Positions 5,877-29,677 of a stretch of 64,000 nucleotides of DNA are shown here, piece by piece. Every line of letters starts with the position of its first letter. Positions within the stretch are counted from its first letter, which is position 1. Under the pieces are notes generated by a model that was not told the DNA's origin, ran no database searches, and saw only the letters and a program-made list of their open reading frames with translations. The position numbers were made by a program, and so were the translations under genes. This DNA is from Actinomycetota bacterium (lineage in GTDB: Bacteria > Actinomycetota > UBA4738 > HRBIN12). The DNA is taken from assembly GCA_026003015.1 (NCBI GenBank), contig BPGL01000001.1:64922-128921 (forward strand). The letters are read 5' to 3'.

Positions 5877-6791
5877 GTGCCGAGATGTCGTAGAGTTGGG
5901 GGCGTGGGCGCGTCGAACGGATGGCTGCGGATCGGCGAGCTGGCTCGCCGCACCGGCTGTTCCCCCGCCCTGCTGCGGGCCTGGGAGCAGCGGTACGGGG
6001 TGCTGCAGCCGGCTCGCACGAAGGGGGGCTTCCGCCTGTACCGCGACAGCGACGTGGCCCGCGTCCGGCGCATGCGCGAGCTGATCGCGGGCGGCCTAGC
6101 GCCCGCGGAGGCCGCGCGCGTGGTGCTCGAGGAGCTGCAGCCCACCGGACCCGCGCTCGACGCGTCGCCCACCGCCGACGCAGCGATCGAGGGCGCGGCG
6201 GCCGCCGACCTCGTGGAGCGGCTCGAGGCCGCGCTCGAGCGCTTCGACGATCGCGAGGCCCAGGCGGTGCTCGACGAGGTGTTCGCCAGGCTCTCGGTGG
6301 AGTCGGCGATCCAGCGGGTCGTGCTCCCGTACCTGGAGCGACTGGGCACGCGCTGGTCGCAGGGCCTCGTGACGATCGCGCAGGAGCATTTCGCGTCGAA
6401 CGTGCTGCGCGCCCGGCTGCTCGGGCTCGCGCGGGGGTGGGGGAGCGGCGTCGGTCCGCTCGCCGTCCTCGCCTGCCCGCCGGGCGAGGAGCACGAGCTG
6501 GGGTTGATCGCGTTCGGGCTCGTGCTCTCGCGCCGGGGGTGGCGTGTCGCCTACCTGGGAGCCGACACGCCCCTGGAGACGCTCACCTCGACCGTCGATC
6601 TGCTCGAGCCCGCCGTCGTCGTGCTCGCGGCCTACGACCCCGAGCGCCTGCGGCCGCACCGAGAGGCCATCCGCCGGCTCGCGGCCTCGGTCCCCGTGGC
6701 GATCGGCGGCGCGCTCGGGGATCTCGACCCCGAGGAGCTCGGCGTCCGGGCGCTCGCGTCCGACGTCGTCGCGGCGGCCGCGGCCCTGTGA
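5877..6791 (+). CDS. MerR-family transcriptional regulator with C-terminal cobalamin-binding domain (CarH/LitR-type light sensor)
   Basis: The N-terminus has a MerR helix-turn-helix (LRIGELARRTG...GFRLY). The C-terminus has a B12-binding Rossmann domain with the His-on motif GEEHELG. The start is GTG at 5877, with an alternative GTG at 5904. Confidence 0.75.
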   Translation: MPRCRRVGGVGASNGWLRIGELARRTGCSPALLRAWEQRYGVLQPARTKGGFRLYRDSDVARVRRMRELIAGGLAPAEAARVVLEELQPTGPALDASPTADAAIEGAAAADLVERLEAALERFDDREAQAVLDEVFARLSVESAIQRVVLPYLERLGTRWSQGLVTIAQEHFASNVLRARLLGLARGWGSGVGPLAVLACPPGEEHELGLIAFGLVLSRRGWRVAYLGADTPLETLTSTVDLLEPAVVVLAAYDPERLRPHREAIRRLAASVPVAIGGALGDLDPEELGVRALASDVVAAAAAL

Positions 6792-6810
6792 GGAGCGGGC
6801 TCGGTCGGGC

Positions 6811-7773
6811 TCAAACGGTGACGACCACCTTGCCGAGGGCGTGACCCCGTTCGAGGTAGCGGACCGCCTCGGCGGCATCGACCAACGGGTAGGTCCGGCC
6901 GACCACCGGCGTAACGGCGCCCTGCTCGATCAGGCCGACGAGAGCCCGCAGGTCCTCGCCGGTCTCCTTCGCGATCACCGGGCGTAGCCGCTGCCTCGTC
7001 ACGAGCGAGAGGAGGGGGGCGCGCAGGATCTGGCGGAAGAACCCTCCCGTCCACTTCCCACCGCCGTCCCCGCCGACGATCGCGAGCGTGCCGGTCGGGG
7101 CGAGGAGGCGACGGAGCACGCGGAGCGGCCGCCGCCCCGCCGTGTCGACGATCGCGTCCCATCGGCCCGCGAGCGCTTCGCGCGTGTAGTCGATCACCTC
7201 GTCGGCGCCGAGCGAGCGCACGAGCGCCAGCTTCGACGTGCTCGCCACCCCGGTGACGTGGGCGCCGAAGGCCTTCGCCACCTGCACGGCCAGCGTGCCG
7301 ACGCCCCCGCCCGCGCCGATCACGAGCACGCGCATCCCCGGCTCCACGCGGACGACGTCGCGGATGGCCTGGAGGGCCGTGAGCCCCGAGATCGGCGCCG
7401 CGGCCGCCTCCTCGAAGGAGAGCCTCGCCGGCTTCGGCACCACGAGCGCGGCCCTGCCCACCGCGCGCTCGGCGAAGGAGCCCTCGACGATGCCGAGGAC
7501 CTCGTCGCCGGGCGCGACGTGGGTGACGTTCGCGCCGACGGCGTCGACGACCCCGGCGACGTCGCGCCCGCGAGGGTGCCGCCGCATCCTCTGAAACTCG
7601 GGCATCAGCCGTGCGAACCTCGGCAGCCCCGTCATCAGGTGCCAAACGTCCGGCCCGGCGCCGGCGGCCCGCACCTGGATCCGGACCTCGTCGTCGCCCG
7701 CGGTCGGCTCCGGAACCTCCTGGAGCTGGAGCACGTCAGCCGTCCCGTACCGGTCCTGCACGATCGCCTTCAT
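6811..7773 (-). CDS. NADPH:quinone oxidoreductase / zinc-type MDR family oxidoreductase
   Basis: 320 aa with an MDR fold (GAGGGVGTLAVQVAKAFGA nucleotide-binding motif). GGAGGGAG precedes the start. Confidence 0.75.
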   Translation of the reverse strand: MKAIVQDRYGTADVLQLQEVPEPTAGDDEVRIQVRAAGAGPDVWHLMTGLPRFARLMPEFQRMRRHPRGRDVAGVVDAVGANVTHVAPGDEVLGIVEGSFAERAVGRAALVVPKPARLSFEEAAAAPISGLTALQAIRDVVRVEPGMRVLVIGAGGGVGTLAVQVAKAFGAHVTGVASTSKLALVRSLGADEVIDYTREALAGRWDAIVDTAGRRPLRVLRRLLAPTGTLAIVGGDGGGKWTGGFFRQILRAPLLSLVTRQRLRPVIAKETGEDLRALVGLIEQGAVTPVVGRTYPLVDAAEAVRYLERGHALGKVVVTV

Positions 7774-8679: not shown

Positions 8680-9440
8680 GCGGGACGAAGCGTCCCGGCG
8701 AACACCTGCCACGCGAGCAGCGACTTCGCGACGAGCGACAGGACGATGTAGGCGAGCTCGCCGAACGCGTAGTCGCGCCAAGGCCCAACCTTCCGGTACT
8801 GCAGCACCATGTTCAGCGCGAAGACGTTGAAGAACACGAAGATCGAGGCGAAGATCGCGTACACGAACCCAGGCGGTCCGCCGCCCTCGTCCCCCGCGCC
8901 GAACAGGTACAGGCCGATGGCGACCCACGGGATCGCTCCAGCGAAGGACCCGAACCAGAACGCCGTCCAGTTCGTCCGCTCCGTGGTCTGGTTGTGGAGC
9001 TCCATGAGCCAGCCGAAGAGGATCATCGTGGCGTTCAGGGCGAGGATGAGGATGAGCGACGCGACGTCGTAGATGCCCACGAGCATCGCGATCACGACGA
9101 TCATCAGCGAGGCGGAGACCGAGTACTCGATCCATCGCGCGGGGTTGATCCCCCGCTCGACGTTGGCCGCGTAGCGGCGGAAGCCGGCCGGTGAGGCGAC
9201 CGAGAGGTGGGCGAGCGCGGAGAGGAACAAGAAGGCGGCCACGAGCGGCCCGATCCTCACCTCGGCGAGCGTTTCGAGGCGTGGCGCCAGGCGACCGGTG
9301 CCCGGGTCCATCTGCAGGAAGGCGCTCGTGATGGGCAGGGCGAAATCGTTCGCCAACGCCAGGACGGCGGCTCCCTGGATCAGGTGCAGCAGGGCCGCCG
9401 CGAGGTTCCAGCTTCGCAGTCCGTTTTGGTCGATCATCAT
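8676..9440 (-). CDS. Heliorhodopsin (retinal-binding 7-TM protein, inverted topology family)
   Basis: 254 aa. Segments match the heliorhodopsin 48C12 family along the whole length: NDFALP, RWIEYSVSASLMIVVIA, NATMILFGWL, FWFGSFAGAIPWV, GFVYAI and ELAYIVLSLVAKSLLAWQVFAGTLRPA. The Schiff-base Lys (in SLVAKS), the counterion Glu (in RWIEYS) and both conserved His are present. AGGAGGG lies 9 nt upstream of the start. Confidence 0.88.
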   Translation of the reverse strand: MMIDQNGLRSWNLAAALLHLIQGAAVLALANDFALPITSAFLQMDPGTGRLAPRLETLAEVRIGPLVAAFLFLSALAHLSVASPAGFRRYAANVERGINPARWIEYSVSASLMIVVIAMLVGIYDVASLILILALNATMILFGWLMELHNQTTERTNWTAFWFGSFAGAIPWVAIGLYLFGAGDEGGGPPGFVYAIFASIFVFFNVFALNMVLQYRKVGPWRDYAFGELAYIVLSLVAKSLLAWQVFAGTLRPA

Positions 9441-9468
9441 CGTTTCCCGCCCTCCTGCCTGGCCGGCC

Positions 9469-10410
9469 TCATGCTCCCGCGAGCGCGCGCTCGATCGCCT
9501 GGTCGAAGGACATCGGACGGATCTGTGGGAAGAGCGTCGCCGCTCGCTCGTCTCGAACGACGGTCTCGTTGCGCATGCCGAGCACGAGCGGCCGGGCGAC
9601 GTCGACCGACACCGAGGTGGTGAGCCCGCACCACATCGCGGAGAGCCGTGGTGTGAGCACCGGCACGCCGAGGATCAGCGGGCGCCTCCCTTCCTTGCGC
9701 GCGAGCGTCAGCATCATCTCCCGGAAGGTCAGCACGTCCGGGCCTCCCACCTCGACGATGGTGTGGTGCTCGCTCGTGGCGACGTGCCGCGCCGCCGAGA
9801 GGTAGCGCACGACGTCCGCGATCGCGATGGGCTGCGTGCGGGTGTCGACCCAGCGCGGCACGATCATGACCGGCAGTCGTCGGACGAGGTCGTGGAGCAT
9901 GCGGAACGAGGCGCTCCGGGCGCCGATGACGATGCCGGCGCGGAGCTCGACGACCTCCGGGCCGTGCTCGGCGAGGATCCGCCCCGTCTCGTGACGGCTG
10001 CTGAGGTGCGCCGACAGGTCGTCGTCGTCTCGCCCGAGCCCTCCCAGGTACACGATCCGGCGGACGCCGGCCGACGCGGCCGCACGCGCGAAGTTCGTGG
10101 CGCCCTCGCGGTCGCGGGCTCGGAAGGCCGCCCCGGCGCCCATCGAGTGCACGAGGTAGTACGCGACGTCGACCGCTGCGAGCGGCTCGACGAGCGTTCC
10201 CGGGACGAGGACGTCGACGCGGGCGGGAGGAAGCCCGGGCCAGCGCTCGGCGAGCGCCTCGGGGTTGCGACCGGCGGGGGTCGGCCGCTCGCCCAGCGAG
10301 AGCAGGTGGTCCACCAGGGCCGAGCCGATGGCTCCGGAGGCTCCGACCACGAGGGGGCCGGCGCGGGTTCTTGCCCATGGATCGCCCGAACTTAGGCGTC
10401 GCCTCGTCAC
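9469..10410 (-). CDS. NAD(P)H-binding NmrA/YbjT-like atypical SDR family protein
   Basis: N-terminal Rossmann motif VVGASGAIGSALV. The rest resembles NAD-dependent epimerase/NmrA-like proteins. It starts at a GTG and lies 28 nt upstream of the heliorhodopsin on the same strand. Confidence 0.65.
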   Translation of the reverse strand: MTRRRLSSGDPWARTRAGPLVVGASGAIGSALVDHLLSLGERPTPAGRNPEALAERWPGLPPARVDVLVPGTLVEPLAAVDVAYYLVHSMGAGAAFRARDREGATNFARAAASAGVRRIVYLGGLGRDDDDLSAHLSSRHETGRILAEHGPEVVELRAGIVIGARSASFRMLHDLVRRLPVMIVPRWVDTRTQPIAIADVVRYLSAARHVATSEHHTIVEVGGPDVLTFREMMLTLARKEGRRPLILGVPVLTPRLSAMWCGLTTSVSVDVARPLVLGMRNETVVRDERAATLFPQIRPMSFDQAIERALAGA

Positions 10411-10498
10411 CCGGTCGCTGGTCGGGATGCGGCGGCGCGTGGTCGAACGCCGCCCCGATCAGAGCCGGGGGATCGGTCACGCGATCTGCTCGGCGACC

Positions 10499-11437
10499 TC
10501 ATCCTCGAGCTCTCCGGGGCTCTCCCGTTGATCTTTGCGTCGCAGGCTGGCGAAGAAGCGTCCCCGTCGTGCGCTGCTCGATGGAAACGCGGTCCCGGAA
10601 GGCCTCGGTGACCCGATCAAGGAAGATCGCAAGGATCACGACGCAAAGGCCGCTCTCGAACCCCAGACCGATCTCCAGCCGGGTGACCGACCGCACCACG
10701 AGCGCGCCGAGTCCCGGTGCGCCACCCAGGCCGGCGATCACGACCATCGACAGCGACAGCATGATCACTTGGTTCACACCGGCCATGATCGTGGGCATCG
10801 CCAATGGGATCTGTACCTGGCGAAGCGTCTGCCCGGTTCTCGAACCGAATGCGTCGGCCGCCTCGACCACCTCCCGGTCTACCTGCCGGATCCCCAGCTC
10901 GGTCAGGCGGACGGCCGGGGGGAGGGCGAAGATGACGCTCGCCACCACGCCGGGTACGACCCCGACGCGGAAGAAGATCACCGCCACGAGGAGGTAGATG
11001 AACGCAGGCATCGTCTGCATGAAGTCCAGGATCGGCCGCATCGTAGCGCTCACGGCGCGGCTGCGGGCTGCCAGGAGTCCGAACGGTACGCCCAGCGCGA
11101 TCGCGACGCCGGCGGCGATCAGCACAAGCGCAAGGGTCTGCATCGTCTCGCTCCAGAAGCCCATCTGATCGACCAGCAGGAAAGCCAGCGCGGTGAACAC
11201 CGCAAGGCTCCAGCCGCGGATCGTGAGTGCGAGCAGCGTGAAGAGTGCGATCAAGGCCGCGGCCGGCGGACCCGTCAGTACATCGGTCAAGGCTGTTACG
11301 AAGAACGATGTAGCGTCGGAGACCAAGTCGAAGACCGGGTCGAGGGTCGACGTGATCCATCGGACCAGGCTGTCAACCGGGCTCGCCAGGTCGACGTCGG
11401 CCAGGAGCTCACGTGGCATCGGCAGCCTCCTCCTCAC
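10499..11437 (-). CDS. proW: Glycine betaine/proline ABC transporter permease
   Basis: 312 aa, multi-TM, with OpuAB/ProW signature regions. Its start overlaps the end of the upstream ATPase gene. Confidence 0.8.
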   Translation of the reverse strand: MRRRLPMPRELLADVDLASPVDSLVRWITSTLDPVFDLVSDATSFFVTALTDVLTGPPAAALIALFTLLALTIRGWSLAVFTALAFLLVDQMGFWSETMQTLALVLIAAGVAIALGVPFGLLAARSRAVSATMRPILDFMQTMPAFIYLLVAVIFFRVGVVPGVVASVIFALPPAVRLTELGIRQVDREVVEAADAFGSRTGQTLRQVQIPLAMPTIMAGVNQVIMLSLSMVVIAGLGGAPGLGALVVRSVTRLEIGLGFESGLCVVILAIFLDRVTEAFRDRVSIEQRTTGTLLRQPATQRSTGEPRRARG

Positions 11438-15386: not shown

Positions 15387-17056
15387 TCGAGGACGAGCTG
15401 AAGGAGCTGCTCCGCCGCGCCCTGCAGGCGGCCGCCCCGGGGCTCGGGCTGGATGGGGAGCTCCCCGAGCCGGAGCTGTTCACCCCGCGCCAGAAGGAGC
15501 ACGGCGACGTGGCGACGAACGTCGCCCTCGCGCTCGCCGCCCGTGCCGGTCGTCCACCGGTCGAGGTGGCGCGCGCGATCGTCGAGGCGCTGCCGCCGGC
15601 CCCGTTCGTCGAGCGCGTGGAGGTCGCCGGCCCCGGGTTCATCAACGTGTTCCTCGCCGAGCGTTGGCTCGTCGACGTCGTGCGGGCGGTGGCGGCGGCG
15701 GGGGAGCGCTTCGGGTGGGCGCCGCCCAGCGGTCGACGCGCCCAGGTCGAGTTCGTGAGCGCGAACCCCACGGGACCCCTGCACATCGGGCACGCGCGCA
15801 ACGCCGCCCTCGGGGACGCCCTCGCGCGCCTGCTCGAGGCCGCCGGGTGGCAGGTCGAGCGCGAGTACTACTTCAACGACGCCGGCGGACAGATGGACCG
15901 GTTCGGACGCTCGGTGGAGGCGCGCTACCTCGAGCTCGTGGGCCGCGAGGCCGAGGTGCCCGAGGACGGCTACCACGGCGAGTACGTGCGCGACCTCGCC
16001 CGCGACATCCTCGCGGCCGAGGGACCGGGGCTCGCCGACCTGCCCGCGGACGAACGGCTCGTTCGGCTGCGTTCCGAGGGCGTGCGCCGCGTCCTGGCTC
16101 AGATCGAGCGGACGCTCGAGCGGTTCGGCGTGCGCTTCGACTCGTTCGTCTCCGAGGCCTCGCTCGCCGAGCGCGGCGAGGTCGGCGCGGCGGTCGATCG
16201 CCTGCGCGCCGCCGGCTACGCCTACGAGGCCGACGGGGCGGTGTGGTTCCGCTCGACGGCGTTCGGGGACGACAAGGACCGCGTGCTCGTCCGGTCCAAC
16301 GGTGTTCACACGTACTTCGGCGCCGACTGCGCGTACCTCATCGACAAGTTCTCCCGGGGGTTCGACCGGTTGGTGTACGTGTGGGGGGCGGACCACCACG
16401 GCGACGTCGCCCGGCTGCGGGGGGCGGCGGCCGCTTTGGGCTACGACCCGGAGGCGGTGGAGATCGTGCTGTACCAGTGGGTGACGTTCCGCCGGGGTGG
16501 CGAGCCGGTCGCGATGAGCAAACGCGCCGGCACCTTCGTGACGCTCGATCAGTTGATCGACGAGGTGGGGGCCGACGCCGCGCGCTGGCACCTGCTCACG
16601 TTCAGCAACGACGCCGCGATGTCCTTCGACATCGACGAGGTGAAGCGACGCTCGATGGACAACCCCGTCTACTACGTGCAGTACGGGCACGCGCGCATCG
16701 CCTCGATCCTGCGCAAGGCGCGCGAGGCGGGGGTCGAGCTTCGGCCGATCGCCGAGGTCGACCTCGATCTGCTGGCTCATCCGAGCGAGCTCGACCTGCT
16801 GCGCGCGATCGCCGGGGTGCCGGGCCTGATCGCGACGGCGGCCTCGATGCGCGCGCCGCACCGGCTCACGCACGCCGCGCACGACCTCGCCGGTCGGTTC
16901 CATCGCTTCTACACCGAGTGCCGCGTGGTCTCCGACGACGAGGCGCTCACGCAGGCCCGCCTGTGGCTCGCGCGAGCCACCCAGCTCGTGCTCGCGGGCC
17001 TGTTGGGTCTGCTGGGGATCGGGGCCCCCGAGCGGATGGAGCGCCCCGATGCCTGA
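15383..17056 (+). CDS. argS: Arginine--tRNA ligase
   Basis: 557 aa with the class I HIGH motif (ANPTGPLHIGHARN) and argS-specific regions. The GTG start overlaps the upstream stop (GTGA). Confidence 0.9.
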   Translation: MIEDELKELLRRALQAAAPGLGLDGELPEPELFTPRQKEHGDVATNVALALAARAGRPPVEVARAIVEALPPAPFVERVEVAGPGFINVFLAERWLVDVVRAVAAAGERFGWAPPSGRRAQVEFVSANPTGPLHIGHARNAALGDALARLLEAAGWQVEREYYFNDAGGQMDRFGRSVEARYLELVGREAEVPEDGYHGEYVRDLARDILAAEGPGLADLPADERLVRLRSEGVRRVLAQIERTLERFGVRFDSFVSEASLAERGEVGAAVDRLRAAGYAYEADGAVWFRSTAFGDDKDRVLVRSNGVHTYFGADCAYLIDKFSRGFDRLVYVWGADHHGDVARLRGAAAALGYDPEAVEIVLYQWVTFRRGGEPVAMSKRAGTFVTLDQLIDEVGADAARWHLLTFSNDAAMSFDIDEVKRRSMDNPVYYVQYGHARIASILRKAREAGVELRPIAEVDLDLLAHPSELDLLRAIAGVPGLIATAASMRAPHRLTHAAHDLAGRFHRFYTECRVVSDDEALTQARLWLARATQLVLAGLLGLLGIGAPERMERPDA

Positions 17057-18920
17057 GGCGGTCCCCTCCGCCTCCGTCGCCGCGGCCGAGCCGGGGCTTC
17101 GCGCGGGTCCGTGGCCCGCGTCGGCCTCCTTCGCCGAGGGCCTTCGGGTCGGGGGGGTGGCGGTGGCGGCGCTGGTGGAACGGTTCGGCACCCCGCTCGT
17201 CGTCGTCGACGCCGACGAGGTCCGCGCCCGGATGCGCCGGGTGCGTCGGGCCTTTCCCCGGGCCGCCTACGCGGTGAAGGCGTTCACCGCCCACGCGGTC
17301 GTGCGCCTCGCGCTCGAGGAGGACCTGGACCTGTTGTGCGCGAGCGGGGGCGAGCTCGAAGCCTGTCTGCGCGCGGGCGCTCCGGGCGAGCGGCTGTTCC
17401 TGCACGGCAACGCGAAGACCGACGACGAGCTGCGCGCGGCGCTCGAGGCCGGGGTTCGCTGGGTCATCGTCGACCACGGGCAGGAGCTCGCCCGCCTCGC
17501 GGAGCTCGCGCGCGCGGCGGGCCGGGTGCAGCCCGTGCTCCTGCGGGTGATCCCCGAGGTGGAGGTCCGCACGCACGAGGCGATCGCCACCGGCCACGAG
17601 CGCTCGAAGTTCGGGACGCCCCTGGAGGAGGTGCCGGCGCTCGCGCGCCGTGCGATCGAGCTCTCCGGCGTGCGGATCGACGGCTACCACGCCCACGCGG
17701 GCTCGCAGCTGCTCCAGGTCGAGCCGTACGTGCGGGTGCTCGACGCGCTCCTCGGGATCGCCGGGCGCGTCCACGAGCAGCTGGGTCTGGCGCCGCGGGC
17801 CCTCGACGTCGGCGGCGGGTTCGGCGTCGCCTACACCCACGAGCCGGCGCTCGACCCGACGCAGGTCGGGGGCGAGCTCGCCGAGCGACTGGCCGCGCGC
17901 TGCGCCTGCCTCGGGCTCCCGACCCCTGAGCTGGTGGCCGAGCCCGGACGCTGGGTCGTCGCCAACGCGGCGCTCACCGTGTACCGGGTGGTGGCGCGCA
18001 AGCGCGTGGGGGATCGCGAGCTCGTCGCGGTCGACGGCGGGATGTCGGACAACCTCCGTCCGATGCTCTACGGGGCCGCCTACACCGTGGCGCCGGTCGT
18101 CCCCCGGCCGGGTCCGGCGCGCCGGGTCTCGCTCGTCGGCCGGCACTGCGAGTCCGGCGACGTGCTCGCCGACGACGTCGAGCTGCCCGACGCCCTGGGC
18201 CCCGGCGACCTCGTTGCCGTGGCTGCGACCGGCGCCTACGGCTACGCGCTCGCCTCGGCCTACAACCGCGTCGGGCGCCCCGCCGTGGTCGCCGTGGAGG
18301 GTGGTCGGGCGGTGCCGTGGCTGCGTCGCGAGGACGCCGCCGACCTCGACCGGCTCGAGGTGGCCCCACCGCGCTCGCTCCCCGCGCCCGCGCCCCCGTC
18401 CGGCGTCGCGATCCGCCCCGCGCGGCCGAGCGACGCGCGGTCGTTCCTCGAGTTGTGGCGCGGCGTGGTCGCCGAGGGGCGGTGGCTGCCCGACGAGCAG
18501 GTCCACGAGCGACCGCGCGCCGTGTTCCGCCGGTTCCGCCGCTCCTGGAGCGCCGAGGGCGCCGAGATCGTCGCGGTCGAGGCCGGCCGCGTCGTCGGCC
18601 ACCTCGCCCTCGACCGGGAGCGTCACCCGGCGCACCGCCACGTCGCCACGCTCGGCATGGTGGTGGCCGCCGAGCGGCGGGGACGGGGGATCGGCACGGC
18701 GATGCTCGCCGTGGCCCTCCGCTGGGCTCGCGAGGTCGGGGTCCGCAAGCTCGTGCTGTCGGTCTACCCCGACAACGTCCGCGCGATCGCCCTGTACCGG
18801 CGGTTCGGCTTCGTCGAGGAGGGGCGTCTCGCACGCCGCTCCCGGACGTCCTACGGTTACCGCGACGAGGTCGTGATGGCGCGCTGGGTGGACGAGGAGC
18901 CGACCGGGGGTCGGGCATGA
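17049..18920 (+). CDS. lysA: Diaminopimelate decarboxylase fused to a C-terminal GNAT N-acetyltransferase domain
   Basis: Residues 1-450 are a PLP fold-III decarboxylase (AYAVKAF, GGGFGV, EPGRW, CESGD). Residues ~455-623 are a GNAT fold (GHLAL...RRGRGIGTAMLAVALRWAREVGVRKLVLSVYPDNVRAIALYRRFGF). It is one uninterrupted 623-aa ORF. Confidence 0.8.
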   Translation: MPEAVPSASVAAAEPGLRAGPWPASASFAEGLRVGGVAVAALVERFGTPLVVVDADEVRARMRRVRRAFPRAAYAVKAFTAHAVVRLALEEDLDLLCASGGELEACLRAGAPGERLFLHGNAKTDDELRAALEAGVRWVIVDHGQELARLAELARAAGRVQPVLLRVIPEVEVRTHEAIATGHERSKFGTPLEEVPALARRAIELSGVRIDGYHAHAGSQLLQVEPYVRVLDALLGIAGRVHEQLGLAPRALDVGGGFGVAYTHEPALDPTQVGGELAERLAARCACLGLPTPELVAEPGRWVVANAALTVYRVVARKRVGDRELVAVDGGMSDNLRPMLYGAAYTVAPVVPRPGPARRVSLVGRHCESGDVLADDVELPDALGPGDLVAVAATGAYGYALASAYNRVGRPAVVAVEGGRAVPWLRREDAADLDRLEVAPPRSLPAPAPPSGVAIRPARPSDARSFLELWRGVVAEGRWLPDEQVHERPRAVFRRFRRSWSAEGAEIVAVEAGRVVGHLALDRERHPAHRHVATLGMVVAAERRGRGIGTAMLAVALRWAREVGVRKLVLSVYPDNVRAIALYRRFGFVEEGRLARRSRTSYGYRDEVVMARWVDEEPTGGRA

Positions 18921-21306: not shown

Positions 21307-22173
21307 ATGCGCGTCGCGGTCCGCGTCCCGGCGACCTCCGCCAACCTCGGCCCCGGGTTCGACTGCCTCGGGCTCGCGCTCGACCTGTGCAACGAGGTGG
21401 TGGTCGACACCGAGGCGCCGCCCGGCGTCGTGTGGCGCGGCGAGGGGGCGCAGGAGCTCCCCACGGACGGATCGGATCTCGTCTCGCGCACGATGGCCGC
21501 CGTCGGGGAGCGCTTCGGCGTGCCGCTCGCGCCGCTGCGCCTCGAGGCCGACAACCGCATCCCGCTCGAGCGCGGGCTCGGCTCCTCGTGCGCGGCGGTC
21601 GTGGCGGGGATCGCGCTCGCCTCGCGCGTGTGCGACCTCGGCCTGCACGCCGATCCGACCTCCGTCTTCGCGCTCGCGGCCGAGCTCGAGGGGCACCCCG
21701 ACAACGCCGCGCCCGCCTGCTTCGGCGGGCTCGTCGTCGTCGCCGACGGCGCCGCTCGGCGCCTCGAGCCGCACCCGTCGCTGCGCCCCGTGCTGCTCGT
21801 GCCGCCGACGCGCCTGCCGACCGAGCAGGCCCGTCGCGCCCTCCCCGCGCAGGTCCCCTTCGCCGACGCGGCGGCCAACGCGGCCGGCGCCGCGATGGCC
21901 GTGGTCGCGCTCACCCAGGACCCCTCCGTGCTGCCGATCGCCCTCCGCGACCGGCTCCACCAGCCGACGCGCCTGGCCCTCGTGCCCGAGGTCGCGGAGG
22001 TCTTCGCCGACCTCGAGGCACGCCGCGTGCCGGTGTGCTTGTCCGGGGCGGGCCCGACGCTGCTCGCCTTCGAGCGGCCGGGTGCGCCGGAGGTCCCCGC
22101 GGAGCTCGTCACGGCGGGCTGGAGGATCCTCAGACCTGGCGTGCGGGCGAGCGGGTACGAGCTGGTCGGCTGA
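21307..22173 (+). CDS. thrB: Homoserine kinase
   Basis: GHMP kinase motif PLERGLGSSCAAVVAG and an N-terminus ATSANLGPGFDCLG. Confidence 0.85.
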   Translation: MRVAVRVPATSANLGPGFDCLGLALDLCNEVVVDTEAPPGVVWRGEGAQELPTDGSDLVSRTMAAVGERFGVPLAPLRLEADNRIPLERGLGSSCAAVVAGIALASRVCDLGLHADPTSVFALAAELEGHPDNAAPACFGGLVVVADGAARRLEPHPSLRPVLLVPPTRLPTEQARRALPAQVPFADAAANAAGAAMAVVALTQDPSVLPIALRDRLHQPTRLALVPEVAEVFADLEARRVPVCLSGAGPTLLAFERPGAPEVPAELVTAGWRILRPGVRASGYELVG

Positions 22174-22182
22174 GCTGGCCGC

Positions 22183-23358
22183 TCAGTCGACGCACGCCCC
22201 GAGCCCGACCGGCGCGCTTCGCCCCAGGGCGGGCTCGACGAACCGCGCGACCTGGGAGGCCGCGATCGCGTAGGCGATGCGGTCGTCGAGGACCGAGTTC
22301 GCGAACACGACGCCGGCCACCCGGCCGTCGGGCAGGGCGAAGGGGCCGCCGCTGTTGCCCCCTCGGACGCGGGCCTGCAGCTCGTAGACGCGGCGGCGAA
22401 CGAGCTCGCCGCCGTAGATGTCGCGGCCCAGGGGCTCGAACAGCCGGCGAACGGCGGCCGGCCCGCTCGTGGGGCCGCCGCCGGCGGGGAACCCGAGCAC
22501 CGCCCCGCCGGTCCCTCGGGGCAGCGGCTCGGTGGCCAGGTCGAGCGGGGGGGCGGCCAGCTCGGGGACGCGCAGCAGCGCGAGATCCAGCCCGGGATCG
22601 AAGGCGACGACCGTCGCGTCGAGGGCGTCCCCGGCGCCCCCCGGGCGCGCCCACACGTCGTCGGCGCCCGCGACGACGTGGCCGCTCGTCACGACGTAGC
22701 CGGCCGCCACCGCGAAGCCGGAGCCCTCGTTCCAGTACCCGGGACGGCAGCCGTCGGCCAGGACCTGGACGAGGCTCGGCGAGGCGGCCCGCACCGCGGC
22801 GGCGACGGTCGGGTCTGCCGGGGGCGGAACGGGTTGCGCCGTGGAGGGGACCCCGACGAACACGTCGGGGAACCCCAGCGCGTCGACGACGCGCTCGAGC
22901 TGCGGGACGAGCGGGGGCGGAGCCGGGAGCACGGCGGCGACGGCGTCGACGACGCGGGAGTCGCGAACGGCGCGCGCGACGCTCGGGAACGGCCCGGCTG
23001 CCAGGTTCAGCGCGCAGAACCAGATCGCGAGGATCCCGGCCAGCACCGAGACGCCGGCGCCGAGGACGCGGTCGACGATCGAGGCGCCGCGCCCGATGCG
23101 GCGCACGAGCCGGTCGGCGAGCGCCGCGGCGACGGCGCTGCCGAGCACGGCGAGCCCCAGGACGATGAACAGCACGAGGACGATCGAGGCGCCGGGCTCA
23201 TCGGGGCGGCTCGCGAGCCCGCGGGCGACCCCGATCCCCGCCGCGCCCCCGGCGGCCAGCCCGACGAGGCCGGCTCCCTGGGCGAGCGCGCCGCGGCGGT
23301 AGCCGCCGAAGGCGCTGCCGGCGAGCATCAGCAGCAGCAGCAGGTCCAGCGCCGTCAC
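22183..23358 (-). CDS. CvpA-family membrane domain fused to trypsin-like serine protease (MarP/Rv3671c-like)
   Basis: A GTG at 23358 gives 391 aa. There are four N-terminal TM helices (LDLLLLLMLAGSAFGGYRRG...) followed by a chymotrypsin-fold domain (TSGHVV, GNSGGP). The longer ORF N-terminus is an artefact. Confidence 0.7.
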   Translation of the reverse strand: MTALDLLLLLMLAGSAFGGYRRGALAQGAGLVGLAAGGAAGIGVARGLASRPDEPGASIVLVLFIVLGLAVLGSAVAAALADRLVRRIGRGASIVDRVLGAGVSVLAGILAIWFCALNLAAGPFPSVARAVRDSRVVDAVAAVLPAPPPLVPQLERVVDALGFPDVFVGVPSTAQPVPPPADPTVAAAVRAASPSLVQVLADGCRPGYWNEGSGFAVAAGYVVTSGHVVAGADDVWARPGGAGDALDATVVAFDPGLDLALLRVPELAAPPLDLATEPLPRGTGGAVLGFPAGGGPTSGPAAVRRLFEPLGRDIYGGELVRRRVYELQARVRGGNSGGPFALPDGRVAGVVFANSVLDDRIAYAIAASQVARFVEPALGRSAPVGLGACVD

Positions 23359-23404
23359 GGTCCCGGTATCGTCCCACGCGCTAGGACCTCGGGGGGGTGG
23401 ATGG

Positions 23405-24190
23405 ATGACAGGCGGGATCCTCCACGGGCGGGCGGCGCTCGTGACCGGCGGCACGACCGGCATCGGTCGCGCGATCGCACGTCGGTTCCTCGACGAGGGC
23501 GCCGCGGTCGTGATCACCGGCCGCGACGAGGCGCTCGGCGCGGCCGCGCGAGACGAGCTGGCCGCGCTCGGGCCGGTGCGGTTCGTGCGCGCCGACGCCG
23601 CCGATCCGGAGGCGGTCGCCGCCAGCGTCGAGGAGGCGGTGGGGTTCCTCGGAGGCCTCGACGTCCTCGTGAACAACGCCGGGGTGGGCGTCGTCGCGGG
23701 CGTCCTCGACACCCCGTTGGAGGCCTTCGACCTCGTGATGGACGTGAACGTGCGCGGGGCCTTCTGCTACGCGAAGGCCGCCTTCCCGCACCTGGAGGCG
23801 CGCCGGGGCTGCATGCTCCACATCGCGTCGGACGCCGGCGTGCTCGGCGAGGTCGAGATCGCCGTGTACTCCGTGTCGAAGGCGGCGCTCATCATGCTCT
23901 CGAACATGCTCGCCATCGAGGGCGGACGCCGTGGGGTCCGCTCGAACGCCATCTGCCCGGGCGACACTGAGCCCGGCATGCGCCACATGCTCGAGCCCGG
24001 CGCCGAGGAGCGCCCGGAGGACGTCGAGACCTGGCCGCTTCCGCCCGTCGGGCGCGTCGGGCGCGCCACCGACGTCGCGGAGGCGGCCCTGTTCCTCGCG
24101 AGCGACCGGGCGGCGTTCGTCAACGGCGTCGCGCTCCTGGTCGACGGCGGGATGCGGGCCGGGATGCGCGCGGGCATGCCCCGCGCCTGA
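23405..24190 (+). CDS. SDR family oxidoreductase
   Basis: TGGTTGIGRAIA cofactor motif, the NNAG motif and a YxxxK active site (YSVSK). Confidence 0.8.
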   Translation: MTGGILHGRAALVTGGTTGIGRAIARRFLDEGAAVVITGRDEALGAAARDELAALGPVRFVRADAADPEAVAASVEEAVGFLGGLDVLVNNAGVGVVAGVLDTPLEAFDLVMDVNVRGAFCYAKAAFPHLEARRGCMLHIASDAGVLGEVEIAVYSVSKAALIMLSNMLAIEGGRRGVRSNAICPGDTEPGMRHMLEPGAEERPEDVETWPLPPVGRVGRATDVAEAALFLASDRAAFVNGVALLVDGGMRAGMRAGMPRA

Positions 24191-24225: not shown

Positions 24226-25014
24226 GTGGTCACGATCGCGCACATCTCTGACCCCCACGTTGGCTCCCCCTACTTCGTGCCGAACCTGATGAACCGCGTC
24301 ATCAAGGAGCTGAACGAGCTCGGCCCCGACGCGGTCGTCGTGTCCGGGGACCTCACCGCCGAGGGGTTCCGTCAGGAGTACAAGAACTGGCTCGCCTACG
24401 CCGAGCGGATCGAGGCGCCCGTCCACACCGTGCCGGGCAACCATGACTCCCGCAACGTCGGCTACCTCCACTTCGAAGACCTGATCGGGCCCCGCCAGTG
24501 GGTCGTGGACGTGGGCGACGTGCGTCTCGTCGGGGTCGACTCGAGCGAGCCCGACCTGAACGAAGGCAAGGTGGGCCGCGTGCACTACCCGTGGATCGCC
24601 GAGCAGTTCTCCCACCCCGCGGCGCTCAAGATCTTCGTGATCCACCACCACCTGCTGCCGATCCCCGGTACCGGGCGCGAGCGCAGCACCGTGATGGATG
24701 CGGGGGACCTGCTCGAGGTCTTGATCCACGCCGGCGTGAACGTCGTGCTGTCGGGGCACAAGCACGTGCCCTACGTGTGGCAGCTTGAGGACATGTACAT
24801 CGCCAACGCCGGAACCGTCTCGTCGCTGCGCGTGCGCGGCTACACGAAGCCGTGTTACAACATCTTGTCGTTCGACGGCGACTCGGTTGAGATCCGCCGG
24901 AAGTTCCCGTTCGGCGACGAACACCTGATGGCGCGGTTCTCCCTGTTCGAGACCACCCGGCGGCATCGCGAGGCCCCGGTGCAGGAGGCGGCCGGGGTCG
25001 CCGAAGCCCGCTAG
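24226..25014 (+). CDS. Metallophosphoesterase (calcineurin-like)
   Basis: SDPHVG, GDLT, GNHD and GHKH metal-binding motifs. Confidence 0.75.
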   Translation: MVTIAHISDPHVGSPYFVPNLMNRVIKELNELGPDAVVVSGDLTAEGFRQEYKNWLAYAERIEAPVHTVPGNHDSRNVGYLHFEDLIGPRQWVVDVGDVRLVGVDSSEPDLNEGKVGRVHYPWIAEQFSHPAALKIFVIHHHLLPIPGTGRERSTVMDAGDLLEVLIHAGVNVVLSGHKHVPYVWQLEDMYIANAGTVSSLRVRGYTKPCYNILSFDGDSVEIRRKFPFGDEHLMARFSLFETTRRHREAPVQEAAGVAEAR

Positions 25015-25075: not shown

Positions 25076-26407
25076 ATGCGCACCGTCGTCCTCGTCGACG
25101 GCGAGCACTACCCCCCCGTCACCCGCTGGGCGATCGCGGCCGCGCGCGAACGCGGCTACGAGGTCGTGCTCGCGCTCGTCGTCGGGGGCGGGGAGAAGGT
25201 GGGGTCGGCGCCCCTGGAGCTCGGGGTGCCGACGCGCTCGAGCGGACCGGACCGAGCCGAGGCGCTCGCGGCCGTCATCCGGGAGCTGCGTCCCGAGGTC
25301 GTGCTCGACGTGTCCGACGAGCCCGTGCTGGGGTACCGAGAGCGGCTGGCGCTGGCCTCGACGGCGCTGCGGCTCGGCGTCGCCTACGCGGGTGCGGACT
25401 TCCGCCTCGAGCCGCCGGCCGCCGAGCCCGCCCCCGCCGGGGTGCCGACGCTCGCGGTGATCGGCACCGGCAAGCGCACCGGAAAGACCGCGATCGCCGG
25501 GGAGCTCGCGCGGGCGGCATCCCGGCGAGGGCTCGACCCGATCGTCGTGGCGATGGGGCGTGGCGGGCCGCCGGAGCCACAGGTCGCCGAGGCGGGCGCG
25601 GTCACGCTCCCCGCGCTGCTCGAGCTCGTGCGCCGCGGGGAGCACGCGGCCTCCGACTACCTGGAGGACGCCCTCACCACCGGGGTGACGACGATCGGTG
25701 CGCGACGGGCCGGCGGCGGGCTGGCGGGGGCGCCGTTCGCCACGAACGTTCCCGAGGCCGTCGCGATCGCGGCGGCGCGCCGACCCGGGGTCGTCATCCT
25801 CGAGGGGAGCGGCTCGGCGATCCCGCCGGTCGCCTGGGACGCGGGGATCCTCGTCGTCCCGGCGACCTGCCCCGTGGAGTACGTGAGGGGCTACCTCGGC
25901 CCCTATCGGCTGTTGCGCTCCGACCTGGCGGTTGTTACGATGGCAGCTAACCCGGCCTCCGGGTCCCGGCACCTCTCCGATCTCACCTCTTACCTGCGAC
26001 GTTCCCTCGGGGACGACGGGGTCATCCTCACGGAGTTCCACCCGGTGCCGCTGGCGGACGTGAGGGGGAAGGATGCGTTCTTCGCGACGACGGCTCCCGA
26101 CGACGTGGCAGCTCGGCAGGTGGAGCGACTCCAGGCCGAGCACGGCTGCCGGGTCGTCGGCTGGAGCGCCCGCCTCGCCGACCGGTCGGGCCTGGAGGCG
26201 GACCTCGCGCGGGCGGAGGGCTTCGACGTGCTGTTGACCGAGCTGAAGGCCGCCGCGGTGGACGTCGCCGCGGAGCGCGCGATCGCGCGCGGCGCCGACG
26301 TCGTCTTCGTGGACAACCGCGCCGAGGTGATCGAGGGGCCTGCTGAGCTCGGCGGCGTGCTCGAGGCGACGCTCGAGCTCGCCGCGACCCGGGCCCGCGG
26401 ACGGTGA
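25076..26407 (+). CDS. Cyclic 2,3-diphosphoglycerate synthetase-like protein
   Basis: 443 aa with a P-loop-like GTGKRTGKT and the overall architecture recalled for archaeal cDPG synthetase. It is translationally coupled to a downstream 2-phosphoglycerate kinase homologue. GAGAAGGA serves as ribosome-binding site. Confidence 0.55.
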   Translation: MRTVVLVDGEHYPPVTRWAIAAARERGYEVVLALVVGGGEKVGSAPLELGVPTRSSGPDRAEALAAVIRELRPEVVLDVSDEPVLGYRERLALASTALRLGVAYAGADFRLEPPAAEPAPAGVPTLAVIGTGKRTGKTAIAGELARAASRRGLDPIVVAMGRGGPPEPQVAEAGAVTLPALLELVRRGEHAASDYLEDALTTGVTTIGARRAGGGLAGAPFATNVPEAVAIAAARRPGVVILEGSGSAIPPVAWDAGILVVPATCPVEYVRGYLGPYRLLRSDLAVVTMAANPASGSRHLSDLTSYLRRSLGDDGVILTEFHPVPLADVRGKDAFFATTAPDDVAARQVERLQAEHGCRVVGWSARLADRSGLEADLARAEGFDVLLTELKAAAVDVAAERAIARGADVVFVDNRAEVIEGPAELGGVLEATLELAATRARGR

Positions 26408-27393
26408 GGACCGTGATCAAGGAGACGAAGACCCCCCAGATCGTGATCTCCGACGTCGAGGCGGGCCTGCCCTTCTCCAAGGGGTTGCTCGCCTCGCAGG
26501 TCATGGTCACCGGGCTGTCCCCACGCCGCGCCTACGAGGTCGCCGACCGCGTCGAGGATCGGCTGGTGGGCTCGGGGCGCCTCACGCTCACGAGCGAGGA
26601 GCTGGCGAGCGTCGCCGTCGCCGTCCTCTCAGAGGTGGCGGGCGACCGCTACGCGAAGAACTACCAGCGCTGGCGGGAGGTCGAGCGGCTCGACGTGCCG
26701 CTCGTGATCCTGATCGGTGGGGCCACCGGGGTCGGCAAGTCGACGATCGCCACGCAGCTCGCCGCCCGCCTGGGCATCGTTCGGGTCGTGGCGACCGACG
26801 CGATCCGCGAGGTGATGCGCGCGATGCTGTCCGAGCAGCTCCTGCCGACCCTGCACGTGTCCTCGTTCCAGGCCGACGAGGCGCTGCGCGAGCCGCCGAC
26901 CCGCTCGGCCGACGCGGTGATCATCGGGTTCCGCGAGCAGACCGCCGCCGTGTGCGTCGGCGTGAACGCGCTGATCGAGCGCGCGGCCGACGAGGGCACG
27001 AGCATCGTGATCGAGGGCGCCCACATCGTCCCAGGGTTCTTCGATGTGGAAACCCACGCCGACCGCATCCTCGCGGTACCCTTCATCGTGGGGGTCGACG
27101 ACGAGGAGCGCCACCGCTCCCATTTCGCGGCCCGCGAGGGCGCCGTCGCAGCCCGCCCGGCTCAGCGCTACGAGGTCGGATTCGAGAACATCCGGAAGCT
27201 CCAGCGGTGGGTCAAGAGCCAGGCGCTGTCCCACGGGGTGCCGGTGATCCCGAACTACAGCTTCGACCAGTCGATCGCGGCGGTGATCGACCTCGTGATG
27301 GAGCGAGCCACCGCCCGGGCCGCCGAGCTCGGGCGCCGTGAGCAGGGGCGAGCCGAGCCCCCCGAAGGCCGGCGAGAAGGGAAGACCGCGTGA
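26404..27393 (+). CDS. 2-phosphoglycerate kinase-like P-loop kinase
   Basis: 329 aa with Walker A GGATGVGKST, resembling the 2PGK family of Methanothermus-type cDPG pathways. Its start overlaps the cDPG synthetase stop. Confidence 0.55.
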   Translation: MRTVIKETKTPQIVISDVEAGLPFSKGLLASQVMVTGLSPRRAYEVADRVEDRLVGSGRLTLTSEELASVAVAVLSEVAGDRYAKNYQRWREVERLDVPLVILIGGATGVGKSTIATQLAARLGIVRVVATDAIREVMRAMLSEQLLPTLHVSSFQADEALREPPTRSADAVIIGFREQTAAVCVGVNALIERAADEGTSIVIEGAHIVPGFFDVETHADRILAVPFIVGVDDEERHRSHFAAREGAVAARPAQRYEVGFENIRKLQRWVKSQALSHGVPVIPNYSFDQSIAAVIDLVMERATARAAELGRREQGRAEPPEGRREGKTA

Positions 27394-28061
27394 AGCTGTT
27401 CCTGGATACCGCGAGCATCGAGGAGATCCGCGCGATCAAGCGCTGGGGGGTCCTCGGCGGCGTGACGACGAACCCGACCTTGGTCGGGCGCGAGCGGCAG
27501 GATCCCGAGCACGTGTGGAAGCGGATCCTCGACGAGGTCGACGGCGACGTCTCGCTCGAGACGACCGCGGTCGAGGCGGAGGCGATGGTCGAGGAGGGGC
27601 GGGCGCTCGCGGCCATGGGCCGCAACGCCGTCGTCAAGGTGCCGATGACCCCGGCCGGGCTCGAGGCGGGGCGACGCCTGACCGACGAGGGGATCCGGAT
27701 CAACGTGACGCTCGTGTTCTCCCCGGCACAGGCGCTGCTGGCCGCCGAGATCGGCGCCTACGTCGTGTCGCCGTTCCTCGGCAGGATCGACGACGTCGCC
27801 GGCGATGGGATGCACGCCCTGCGCCAGATCGTCGAGATCTATCGCGCCCAGGGGTACCCCACGAAGGTCCTCGCGGCCTCGCTCCGCCACCCGATGCACG
27901 TCGTTGAGGCGGCGCGCGCCGGTGCCGATATCGCGACGATGCCCTACGAGGTGTTCACGAAGCTGGTGAGCCACCCGCTCACCGATCTCGGCCTGGAGCG
28001 GTTCCTGGCCGACTGGCAGCAGCTCCGGCGCGAGCTGGAGGGAGAGGCACGGTCCTCATGA
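27390..28061 (+). CDS. tal: Transaldolase (Fsa/TalC-type, subfamily 3B)
   Basis: 223 aa with MKLFLDTA, TTNPTL and the Schiff-base Lys region (VVKVP). The GTG start overlaps the upstream stop. Confidence 0.85.
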   Translation: MKLFLDTASIEEIRAIKRWGVLGGVTTNPTLVGRERQDPEHVWKRILDEVDGDVSLETTAVEAEAMVEEGRALAAMGRNAVVKVPMTPAGLEAGRRLTDEGIRINVTLVFSPAQALLAAEIGAYVVSPFLGRIDDVAGDGMHALRQIVEIYRAQGYPTKVLAASLRHPMHVVEAARAGADIATMPYEVFTKLVSHPLTDLGLERFLADWQQLRRELEGEARSS

Positions 28062-29677
28062 CTGACATCACCACCGATCGAGCGGTCCTCGGCACGAAGC
28101 TCGTGCCCGAGCTCCAGGCGATCGCGCAGCGCCTGGGCGTCGAGGGCGCACAGAGGCTCCGGAAGGCCGGTCTGATCGACGCGATCGTCGAGCGCGCGAG
28201 CGCGGCCGACGGCAACGGGCGCGCGGGCCAAGGGCGACCCCGCGCCGCCCGGCAGGGGCCCGAGACGCCGTCGCGCGGCGACGAGCCGACGGCCGCGGGA
28301 ACGTCGACGCTCGTGGAGGACCGCCCGGCGCCCCCGACGGCACCGGGCGGGGCCGGCCGCGGCGGCGACGGCGGTGGTCGGGCCGACCGCGGCGGCGACG
28401 GCGGCGGCGAGGGCGGACGCGAGGATCGGCCGGAGCCGCGCGACCAGGGTGGCGAGCCCCAGGGGCGGCGCCGTCGGCCCTCGCGCGAGGAGCGTCGCCG
28501 GGCCCGCGAGGAGCGCCGGGCCCGCGAGGAGGCCGAGCGGGCCGAAGAGCTCGCCAACGCCCCCACGCGGGAGGGGATCCTCGACATCCTGCCCGAGGGG
28601 TACGGGTTCCTGCGCACGACCGGGTACCTGCCCGGCCCCGAGGACATCTACGTATCGGTCGGCCAGGTCCGGCGCTACGCGCTGCGCAAGGGCGACGTCG
28701 TCGCCGGGAAGGCCCGCCGCGCGCGGGACAACGAGAAGTACCCCGCGCTGCTCACGGTCGAGGCGGTGAACGAGCTCGACCCCGAGGAGGCCGCGAGGCG
28801 GCCCCTGTTCGACAAGCTGACCCCCCTGTTCCCTGAGGAGCGGTTCCGGCTCGAGAGCGGTCCCGAGGCGATCAGCGAGCGGATCATCGACATGATCGCG
28901 CCGATCGGTAAGGGCCAGCGGGGGATGGTCGTCTCACCGCCCAAGGCCGGCAAGACGACGATCCTCAAGCAGATCGCGAACGGGATCATCCACTCGGATC
29001 CGAAGACCCACGTGATGGTGCTGCTCGTCGACGAGCGGCCCGAGGAGGTCACCGACTGGCAGCGCACGGTCCGAGCGGCCGAGGTCGTGTACTCGACCTT
29101 CGACAAGCCGACCGACCAGCACATCCAGGTGACCGAGCTCGTGCTCGAGCGAGCCAAGCGCCTGGCGGAGCTCGGTCAGGACGTCGCGATCATCCTCGAC
29201 TCGCTGACGCGCCTGGCCCGCGCCTACAACCTCGCGATGCCGGCCTCGGGGAAGATCCTTACCGGCGGGATCGACGCCTCCGCCCTGTACCCTCCCCGTC
29301 GGTTCTTCGGCGCTGCGCGCAACATCGAGGAGGGCGGTTCGCTCACGATCATCGCGAGCGCGCTCGTCGAGACCGGCTCGCGTATGGACGACGGGATCTT
29401 CGAGGAGTTCAAGGGCACCGGGAACATGGAGCTGCGGCTCGACCGCCAGCTCGCCGAGAAGCGGCTGTTCCCCGCGATCAACGTCGACGCGTCGGGGACC
29501 CGCAAGGAGGAGCTGCTGCTGCCGGCCGAGGAGCTCGCGCTCGTGATCAAGCTGCGTCGCGTGCTGCACGCCCTCGAGCCGGGCGCGGCGCTCGAGCTGC
29601 TGATCGACAAGCTCCGCTCGACCCGTTCGAACGAGCAGTTCCTCCGGGAGATCGCGAAGGCGCCCGCCGGAGGATGA
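28058..29677 (+). CDS. rho: Transcription termination factor Rho (with actinobacterial RG-rich insertion)
   Basis: N-terminal domain, an R/G/D-rich insert, an OB fold and a RecA-like ATPase (PPKAGKTT). The ATG overlaps the tal stop. Confidence 0.9.

Follow-up and report, generated by a model that had tools for sequence, protein, structure and literature searches.

The formation of cyclic 2,3-diphosphoglycerate (cDPG) by 2-phosphoglycerate kinase (2PGK) and cDPG synthetase (cDPGS) is established in Methanothermus fervidus, and recent structural and biotechnological papers still describe cDPG and its synthetase as confined to hyperthermophilic methanogens. In methanogens, cDPG has been proposed to store energy, carbon and phosphate. 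The synthetase is also mentioned in genome papers for thermophilic Thaumarchaeota ancestors, and in Pyrococcus yayanosii the synthetase and 2PGK genes are adjacent (PYCH_14390-400; PMC4890121). A homologous gene pair was investigated here in a 64,000-nt stretch of DNA from an Actinomycetota bacterium (assembly GCA_026003015.1, contig BPGL01000001.1, positions 64,922 to 128,921 of the forward strand), which is referred to as the window. The products of the pair, ORF1 and ORF2 (ORF, open reading frame), are probably a bacterial cDPGS and 2PGK that make cDPG from 2-phosphoglycerate, and the pair would form the core of a vertically inherited gene block. The features of the pair were as follows.

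25076..26407, + strand: ORF1, cDPGS homologue, 443 aa (PDB 8ork/8oru and 9sxb matches; PF27272)
25463..25489, + strand: Walker A motif (P-loop) of ORF1, GTGKRTGKT, G130-T138, containing K133/R134 (alignment to 8ork)
26404..27393, + strand: ORF2, 2PGK homologue, 329 aa, alternative start at 26413 (PRK04220, PRK12337)
26716..26745, + strand: Walker A motif of ORF2, GGATGVGKST, G105-T114 (read from the sequence; Pfam P-loop kinase matches begin at residue ~100)

A sequence search of the PDB matched ORF1 to the M. fervidus cDPGS (8ORK/8ORU) with an E value of 8.7e-89, covering residues 3-434 of the query and 6-446 of the chain, and to 9SXB with an E value of 4e-88. These three entries, all named cyclic 2,3-diphosphoglycerate synthetase, were the only PDB matches; with a 25-sequence family profile, nothing beyond cDPGS was found except HypB and BioD at E > 0.007. 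A grouping of ORF1 with CobW/MobB or another generic P-loop family, which the original prediction had named as the outcome that would count against it, was therefore ruled out. The exact ORF1 sequence has a public entry named '2,3-diphosphoglycerate synthetase [Actinomycetota bacterium]', with Pfam PF27272 CpgS_N in its precomputed annotation; our Pfam scan, with a library copy that lacked PF27272, gave a weak DUF1611 P-loop match only.

ORF1 shared 40% identity with the M. fervidus cDPGS across 427 aligned positions. In the M. fervidus enzyme, 2,3-diphosphoglycerate (2,3-DPG) is contacted by E45 and K46 of the partner subunit and by K145 and R146; T150 and D208 are Mg2+ ligands; K149, K406 (charge-shielding), T353 and E404 make the phosphate/nucleotide contacts; and E305 contacts the adenosine (PMC10690619). 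The ligand residues were transferred from 8ork to ORF1 by alignment, and their invariance was scored over 80 bacterial orthologues. The 2,3-DPG contacts corresponded to E40, K41, K133 and R134 of ORF1, the Mg2+ ligands to T138 and D194, and the phosphate/nucleotide contacts K149, K406, T353 and E404 to K137, K391, T339 and E389, respectively, and each of these ten residues was invariant (80/80). The full-length PDB match and the conserved ligand residues bore out the prediction that ORF1 is cDPG synthetase-like.

ORF2 matched the NCBIfam model PRK04220 '2-phosphoglycerate kinase' with an E value of 4.7e-89 (residues 11-310; model positions 4-300/306) and the model PRK12337 with an E value of 4e-87 (292.8 bits, cut-off 603). 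Much weaker matches were to PRK12338, a hypothetical-protein model (144 bits), and to mevalonate-3-phosphate 5-kinase (73 bits). The full-length matches to 2PGK models ruled out a generic AAA identity, and the assignment as a 2PGK homologue held; the JGI name of the exact ORF2 protein, 2-phosphoglycerate kinase, agrees with it. An ATP-cone in ORF2 was weak and sub-threshold in Pfam (E 0.0043, 18 bits); the domain was detected in the 2PGK homologues of Thermococcus and of two other distant loci (L089 and L094, listed below). A search for a solved 2PGK structure defining the substrate residues found none. One ORF2 relative of 427 aa (P0505) contained a full 2PGK and the first 74 residues of transaldolase, followed by out-of-frame sequence. 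Its reading from Pfam as a 2PGK-transaldolase Rosetta-stone fusion was rejected in favour of a frameshift, or an error of assembly, where the two genes overlap.

The pair is followed directly by two genes.

27390..28061, + strand: short Fsa/TalC-type transaldolase (tal), 223 aa; GTG start overlaps the ORF2 stop (TIGR00875)
28058..29677, + strand: Rho, transcription termination factor, 539 aa; start codon ATG, overlapping the stop of transaldolase (TIGR00767)

The ORF check of the window confirmed the four predicted ORFs at 25076-26407, 26404-27393, 27390-28061 and 28058-29677, in the order cDPGS-2PGK-tal-rho and all on the + strand. The GC content of the window was 65-77% throughout, so that long spurious ORFs were plentiful on both strands. 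In the four ORFs, the GC content at third codon positions (GC3) was 0.93-0.94 against 0.44-0.55 at second positions (GC2), matching the neighbouring genes. Because this coding signature was shared with the neighbours and each ORF had strong homologues, the four ORFs are real genes and not high-GC ORF noise. The three start/stop junctions were 4-nt overlaps reading GTGA, GTGA and ATGA; the predicted overlap length was thus correct at each junction, while the first, given as ATGA in the original prediction, reads GTGA. The start of ORF2 was ambiguous: one public gene call places it at GTG 26404, with the 4-nt overlap with ORF1, and the JGI gene call at GTG 26413, giving 326 aa and a 5-nt gap after ORF1. 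An ATGA overlap between rho and the next ORF was rejected as a junction, since the L31 gene starts at 29710 behind a Shine-Dalgarno sequence (GGAGGAGG). Scans for promoters and terminators over 21-31 kb yielded no signal above the shuffled expectation, and the Rfam scan yielded a tRNA only.

Conservation was investigated in the best 80 of at least 415 species-level genomes with an ORF1 relative. All 80 were uncultured Actinomycetota, with an ORF1 identity of 61-73%. The order cDPGS-2PGK-tal-rho-rpmE was found in all 80 loci wherever the contig extends, with 2PGK adjoining cDPGS in 80/80 and tal following 2PGK in 80/80, and thrB lay upstream in most of them. Gap lengths, which rest on crude start calling, had a median of -4 nt for cDPGS-2PGK (overlap in 38/70) and -4 nt for 2PGK-tal (overlap in 66/78); for tal-rho the median was 0, with a 4- or 1-nt overlap in just 2/39. 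The proposed translational coupling therefore stands for the pair and tal, as a feature of the lineage, and does not extend to rho, the tal-rho overlap being particular to the genome of the window. The linkage to rho reflects the position of the block and not a functional tie, since tal and rho are absent near the pairs of Streptomyces, Thermococcus, Asgard and Cloacimonadota. The GC and GC3 of the block were host-like and the synteny was kept at 61-73% identity; on these grounds a recent horizontal acquisition was rejected, and the block is vertically inherited within the Actinomycetota lineage.

Eleven distant contexts were examined, in which homology was checked by tblastn. Their gene orders were as follows.

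L084, Streptomyces: cDPGS-2PGK only
L085, Acidimicrobiia: thrC, alternative thrB, cDPGS-2PGK-tal-rho
L086, 44% GC bacterium: metallophosphoesterase (MPE)-cDPGS-2PGK-tal-rho
L087, Thermococcus: mannosylglycerate-synthase-type glycosyltransferase (GT), then cDPGS-2PGK
L088, Asgard: GDPD-cDPGS-2PGK-tandem MPE
L089: 2PGK-cDPGS-ApgM-type mutase-CBS
L090, Cloacimonadota: 5'-nucleotidase-cDPGS-2PGK-CBS-tandem MPE
L091, Methanothermobacter: cDPGS alone
L092, M. fervidus: cDPGS alone
L093, Bipolaricaulota: cDPGS-iPGM; 2PGK homologue absent within 8 kb
L094: 2PGK-cDPGS

A full-length ORF2 homologue (36-50% identity) adjoined cDPGS in 8/11 of these contexts, namely Streptomyces, Acidimicrobiia, L086, Thermococcus, Asgard, L089, Cloacimonadota and L094, and tal followed 2PGK in L085, L086 and a further locus, L096. 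The kinase-synthetase pair is thus the conserved core, and tal and rho are lineage baggage. Phosphoglycerate mutase genes flanked cDPGS in L089 (ApgM type) and in L093 (iPGM type, 9352-10908); their presence beside the synthetase in two lineages fits a phosphoglycerate substrate. Small CBS-domain genes adjoined cDPGS in L089 (2854-4586 with the mutase) and L090 (10304-10729), and the mutase and CBS neighbours, recurrent in unrelated lineages, hint at substrate supply and nucleotide-sensing regulation. Two other neighbours were observed. In both proven cDPG producers, a RimB-like (PF05618) gene lay directly after cpgS (L091, 11405-11935; L092, 5914-6492). In L087, from Thermococcus paralvinellae, a PF21969 MGS_GT gene (6467-7609) lay just upstream of cDPGS-2PGK, which places two compatible-solute routes side by side.

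In the proposed route, ORF2 would phosphorylate 2-phosphoglycerate to 2,3-DPG (ATP to ADP), and ORF1 would convert 2,3-DPG to the cyclic pyrophosphate cDPG (ATP to ADP and Pi). The genes for MPE, cDPGS, 2PGK and transaldolase form a tightly packed block on one strand and are probably co-transcribed. We infer the formation of cDPG in these bacteria from homology, active-site conservation, gene linkage and distribution. The compound may be an anionic compatible solute, a mobilisable reserve of phosphate, carbon and energy, or both, and its presence would not be a marker of hyperthermophily.

Several observations weigh against this assignment. The PRK04220 score of ORF2, 298.8 bits, lies below the curated equivalog cut-off of 343; with scores below the equivalog cut-offs, membership of the family is secure and the same function is not licensed by the models alone. 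The family of ORF2 also includes kinases for other substrates, such as mevalonate-3-phosphate 5-kinase. ORF1 matched no NCBIfam model, and its adenosine contact is not kept, E305 being replaced by Ala291; this position is A/G/S/T across the bacterial orthologues and Asp in 9SXB, and is thus unconserved even between two solved enzymes. In the proven cDPG producers, Methanothermobacter and M. fervidus, cDPGS and 2PGK are unlinked, so that no characterised system validates the linkage of the pair itself. Reports of cDPG, 2PGK or cDPGS activity in bacteria were absent from the literature searched, in agreement with the earlier statement that the biochemistry had been demonstrated only in methanogens. 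A distant homologue of cDPGS with other chemistry, ArcE (TK2200), is widespread in bacteria (PMC11032458).

A word-indexed search with 8,000 scored candidates gave at least 7,871 relatives of ORF1 at E <= 1e-10, and an exhaustive search of 50%-identity representatives gave 235 clusters at E <= 1e-30. According to the source names of the representative clusters, bacterial carriers included cultured Streptomyces (WAC 01529, S. anatolicus, NRRL S-920), Acidimicrobiia, Cloacimonadota and Bipolaricaulota, and archaeal carriers included an Asgard archaeon ('Ca. Borrarchaeum'), Thermococcus and Methanobacteriales. Among uncultured Actinomycetota the pair is common, and the window represents an ordinary example of a bacterial group that has received little study. 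The original prediction considered a bacterial operon notable in itself. This was not borne out: NCBI/JGI already give both exact proteins their correct names, a CpgS_N family exists in Pfam, and the relatives reach at least 415 species-level genomes and cultured Streptomyces. Compared with the published literature, the new points are the extent of the bacterial occurrence, the operon architecture and a candidate degradative enzyme, none of which is specific to the window.

The candidate degradative enzyme is encoded directly upstream of the pair.

24226..25014, + strand: MPE, 262 aa, candidate cDPG/2,3-DPG hydrolase, 62 nt upstream of ORF1 (Pfam Metallophos, E 1e-18)

Its motifs DxH, GD, GNHD, HHH and GHxH were intact, and its nearest solved relatives were Rv0805 and GpdQ-type phosphodiesterases (E 1e-11). 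Of the 80 related loci, 78 had a flank long enough to show this position, and in each of these MPE lay directly upstream of cDPGS; the median gap was +42 nt. Relatives of MPE adjoined the pair in four independent settings: the window lineage, L086 together with L096, Asgard and Cloacimonadota. The identity was 56% in L086 and 26-35% in the Asgard and Cloacimonadota loci, where the relatives are tandem-domain fusions (L088, 6550-8067; L090, 10733-12232) that represent duplications of the window MPE type. Alignment showed that the second half of the tandem proteins has GINSS in place of the GNH[DE] motif, which suggests that it is a degenerate, possibly regulatory domain. The 214-aa metallophosphoesterase of Thermococcus and the 5'-nucleotidase of Cloacimonadota had no match to the window MPE.

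A reverse search from the tandem proteins gave about 10 clear relatives (34-51% identity to the window MPE) in metagenome contigs, of which just one (L096) has cDPGS next door; the others lie by PhoU or unrelated genes. The association of MPE with cDPGS is therefore recurrent and not exclusive, which weakens its specificity. One unlinked relative with 38% identity (L099, 5221-6729) lay directly downstream of a PhoU gene, which suggests that this MPE subfamily may function more generally in phosphate metabolism.

Cleavage of phosphoanhydrides is within the chemistry of the metallophosphoesterase superfamily (e.g., LpxH and ApaH). A cDPG-hydrolysing activity has been described in Methanothermobacter, and we know of no gene assigned to it. 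Given the superfamily chemistry and this orphan activity, MPE is a candidate for the hydrolase of cDPG or for a phosphatase acting on 2,3-DPG. On a further, speculative extension, which we consider doubtful, many non-methanogens would run a complete cDPG cycle with MPE in one of these two roles, and cDPG would be a widespread reserve. If this is true, the cycle would be carried by, among others, abundant Actinomycetota, cultured Streptomyces, Cloacimonadota and Asgard archaea, and cDPG would be a mobilisable phosphate, energy and osmotic reserve and not a methanogen-only thermoprotectant.

The original prediction took the pair as a hint of a thermophilic or osmotically stressed host. The corresponding explanation, that the pair is a thermoprotectant pathway from hyperthermophilic archaea, draws on the literature, which assigns cDPG a thermoprotectant function in M. 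fervidus and M. kandleri, and on composition. Over 45 GC3-selected ORFs, the IVYWREL index of the window was 0.443 (nominally ~80 °C) and the charged-minus-polar bias was 0.114; with gene sets unmatched between loci, this composition resembled that of the Thermococcus (79 °C) and Methanothermobacter (71 °C) loci and was far above that of the Streptomyces locus of similar GC (0.386, 27 °C). The temperatures given by these three control loci were sensible. However, the same four genes across the 80 related metagenome-assembled genomes (MAGs) scored 0.415-0.455, and since the index is high across the whole lineage, composition can neither confirm nor rule out that the organism of the window lives in a warm habitat. 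The names of many related MAGs suggest soil surveys or catalogues. The carriers comprise hundreds of MAGs and cultured Streptomyces, a genus taken as mesophilic, and the presence of the pair in Streptomyces means that the pathway is not a marker of thermophily. The hint of a stressed host thus does not follow from the pair.

The archaeal origin in this explanation was addressed with a neighbour-joining tree (200 bootstraps). The ORF1 lineage was recovered in 192/200 replicates and Methanobacteriales in 200/200, and all deeper nodes were below 20%; within this limit, the ORF1 lineage was not nested in an archaeal clade. An earlier unbootstrapped tree with a bacterial sequence beside M. fervidus was unsupported under bootstrapping. 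The host-like GC and GC3 and the synteny at 61-73% identity imply that any inter-domain transfer was ancient. Taken as a whole, a thermoprotectant pathway acquired from archaea is an unlikely account of the locus.

Rather less likely is an explanation in which the predicted specificities are right and cDPG is not accumulated as a solute, either because 2,3-DPG is the physiological product, for example as a mutase cofactor or regulator, or because the synthetase runs mainly in reverse for ATP. Reversibility is reported for the M. fervidus cDPGS, a property that stands in the literature beside the storage roles proposed for methanogens, and the block of the window holds a phosphoesterase and sits with central-carbon genes. 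Conservation of a dedicated synthetase with the kinase in 88/91 contexts nevertheless argues that the cyclic product matters.

Finally, ORF1 could be a cDPGS-fold enzyme for another substrate, for example ArcE-like, and ORF2 a kinase for another acid, with names that were over-propagated. The ArcE case is the main reason not to equate the cDPGS fold with function. ArcE of T. kodakarensis (TK2200), formerly a 'predicted GTPase', catalyses arginine + ADP + Pi <-> citrulline + NH3 + ATP; it is an ATP-dependent enzyme of the same superfamily as cDPGS, distantly homologous and also found in bacteria (PMC11032458). The ORF2 score, the missing NCBIfam match of ORF1 and the fact that the bacterial members are known from sequence alone are in line with such a substitution. 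Against it, the similarity of ArcE and cDPGS is described as low, cDPGS being used as an outgroup (PMC11032458), while ORF1 is 40% identical to an assayed cDPGS over its full length and retains all of the 2,3-DPG contacts, the E-K pair of the N-terminal domain among them. By published description, ArcE is associated with arcB (ornithine carbamoyltransferase, OTC) and arcC (carbamate kinase), and neither gene was found beside ORF1, whose neighbours are the phosphoesterase, the 2PGK homologue, transaldolase and rho, and elsewhere phosphoglycerate mutases. An enzyme pair for other substrates is therefore very improbable, and the reading of ORF1 and ORF2 as a bacterial cDPGS and 2PGK is preferred.

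The two genes downstream of the pair were assigned with high scores. Transaldolase scored 268.6 bits against TIGR00875, above the cut-off of 245.95, and its best PDB matches were the transaldolases 1vpx/1wx0 (E ~1e-73). Rho scored 596.2 bits against TIGR00767, above the cut-off of 509.45; it has the Pfam domains Rho_N (11-50) and Rho_RNA_bind (172-243) and the ATPase domain. Between the N-terminal and RNA-binding domains, at residues ~51-171, Rho carries an insert of ~120 aa rich in Arg, Gly, Glu, Asp and Pro. Such inserts are described for high-GC actinobacterial Rho proteins.

Three further features lie upstream of MPE.

21307..22173, + strand: homoserine kinase thrB, upstream edge of the backbone (Pfam GHMP_kinases_N; neighbouring argS, lysA and thrC)
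22183-23712, - strand: CvpA-trypsin-like protease gene, between thrB and the phosphoesterase
23405-24190, + strand: SDR, glucose-1-dehydrogenase-like, between thrB and the phosphoesterase

The gene order of the window was argS, lysA(-GNAT), (hom), thrC, thrB, the CvpA-protease gene in reverse, SDR, MPE and cDPGS, followed by 2PGK, tal, rho, rpmE, DUF1385, DivIVA-like, prfA and prmC. The order argS-lysA-hom-thrC-thrB-rho-rpmE-prfA-prmC we take to be a conserved actinobacterial backbone, as in M. tuberculosis, and given this conservation the block MPE-cDPGS-2PGK-tal is an insertion between thrB and rho. SDR was found in only about one quarter of the related loci, so that this edge of the insertion is variable. 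Within the argS-lysA-thrC-thrB array, the single ORF at 17049-18920 (+ strand) encodes a LysA-type pyridoxal phosphate (PLP)-dependent decarboxylase (residues 56-395) and, at its C-terminus, a GNAT acetyltransferase domain (455-590), an apparent gene fusion.

The sequence record contradicts the view that the pathway is confined to methanogens, as intact enzymes that preserve the active site, usually with 2PGK, are common in uncultured Actinomycetota and also occur in Streptomyces that can be cultured. Should the bacterial enzymes prove active, cDPG would become a candidate for a compatible solute or a store of phosphate in bacteria that are not thermophiles, enzymes that are mesophilic and easily expressed would be available for extremolyte production, and the phosphoesterase of the operon would be a testable candidate for the degradative step.

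Compared with the class III phosphodiesterases Rv0805, GpdQ and CpdA, the window MPE has the fold and the metal-binding motifs in common, but the similarity is only at E ~1e-11. ORF2 resembles the archaeal 2PGKs (PRK04220/PRK12337), first characterised from M. fervidus, in that the region N-terminal to the P-loop domain also matches; it differs in its score below the equivalog cut-off and its weak ATP-cone signal. ORF1 and the M. fervidus cDPGS are of the same length class and have the same two-domain layout (N-terminal CpgS_N and P-loop core), with the Walker A motif GTGKRxGKT and identical 2,3-DPG, Mg2+ and phosphate contacts, whereas the host of ORF1 is a high-GC bacterium, E305 is Ala, and ORF1 is known here from its sequence. 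In M. fervidus and Methanothermobacter the cDPGS gene stands apart from 2PGK, whereas ORF1 is in an operon with 2PGK. The other solved enzyme, 9SXB (436 aa), whose closest cluster is from Thermococcus paralvinellae, likewise shared 40% identity with ORF1. The Thermococcus pair comes from an archaeal hyperthermophile, and its cluster has an MGS-type gene as neighbour and is without phosphoesterase, transaldolase and rho; as in the window, the 2PGK homologue directly follows the synthetase, with stop and start overlapping.

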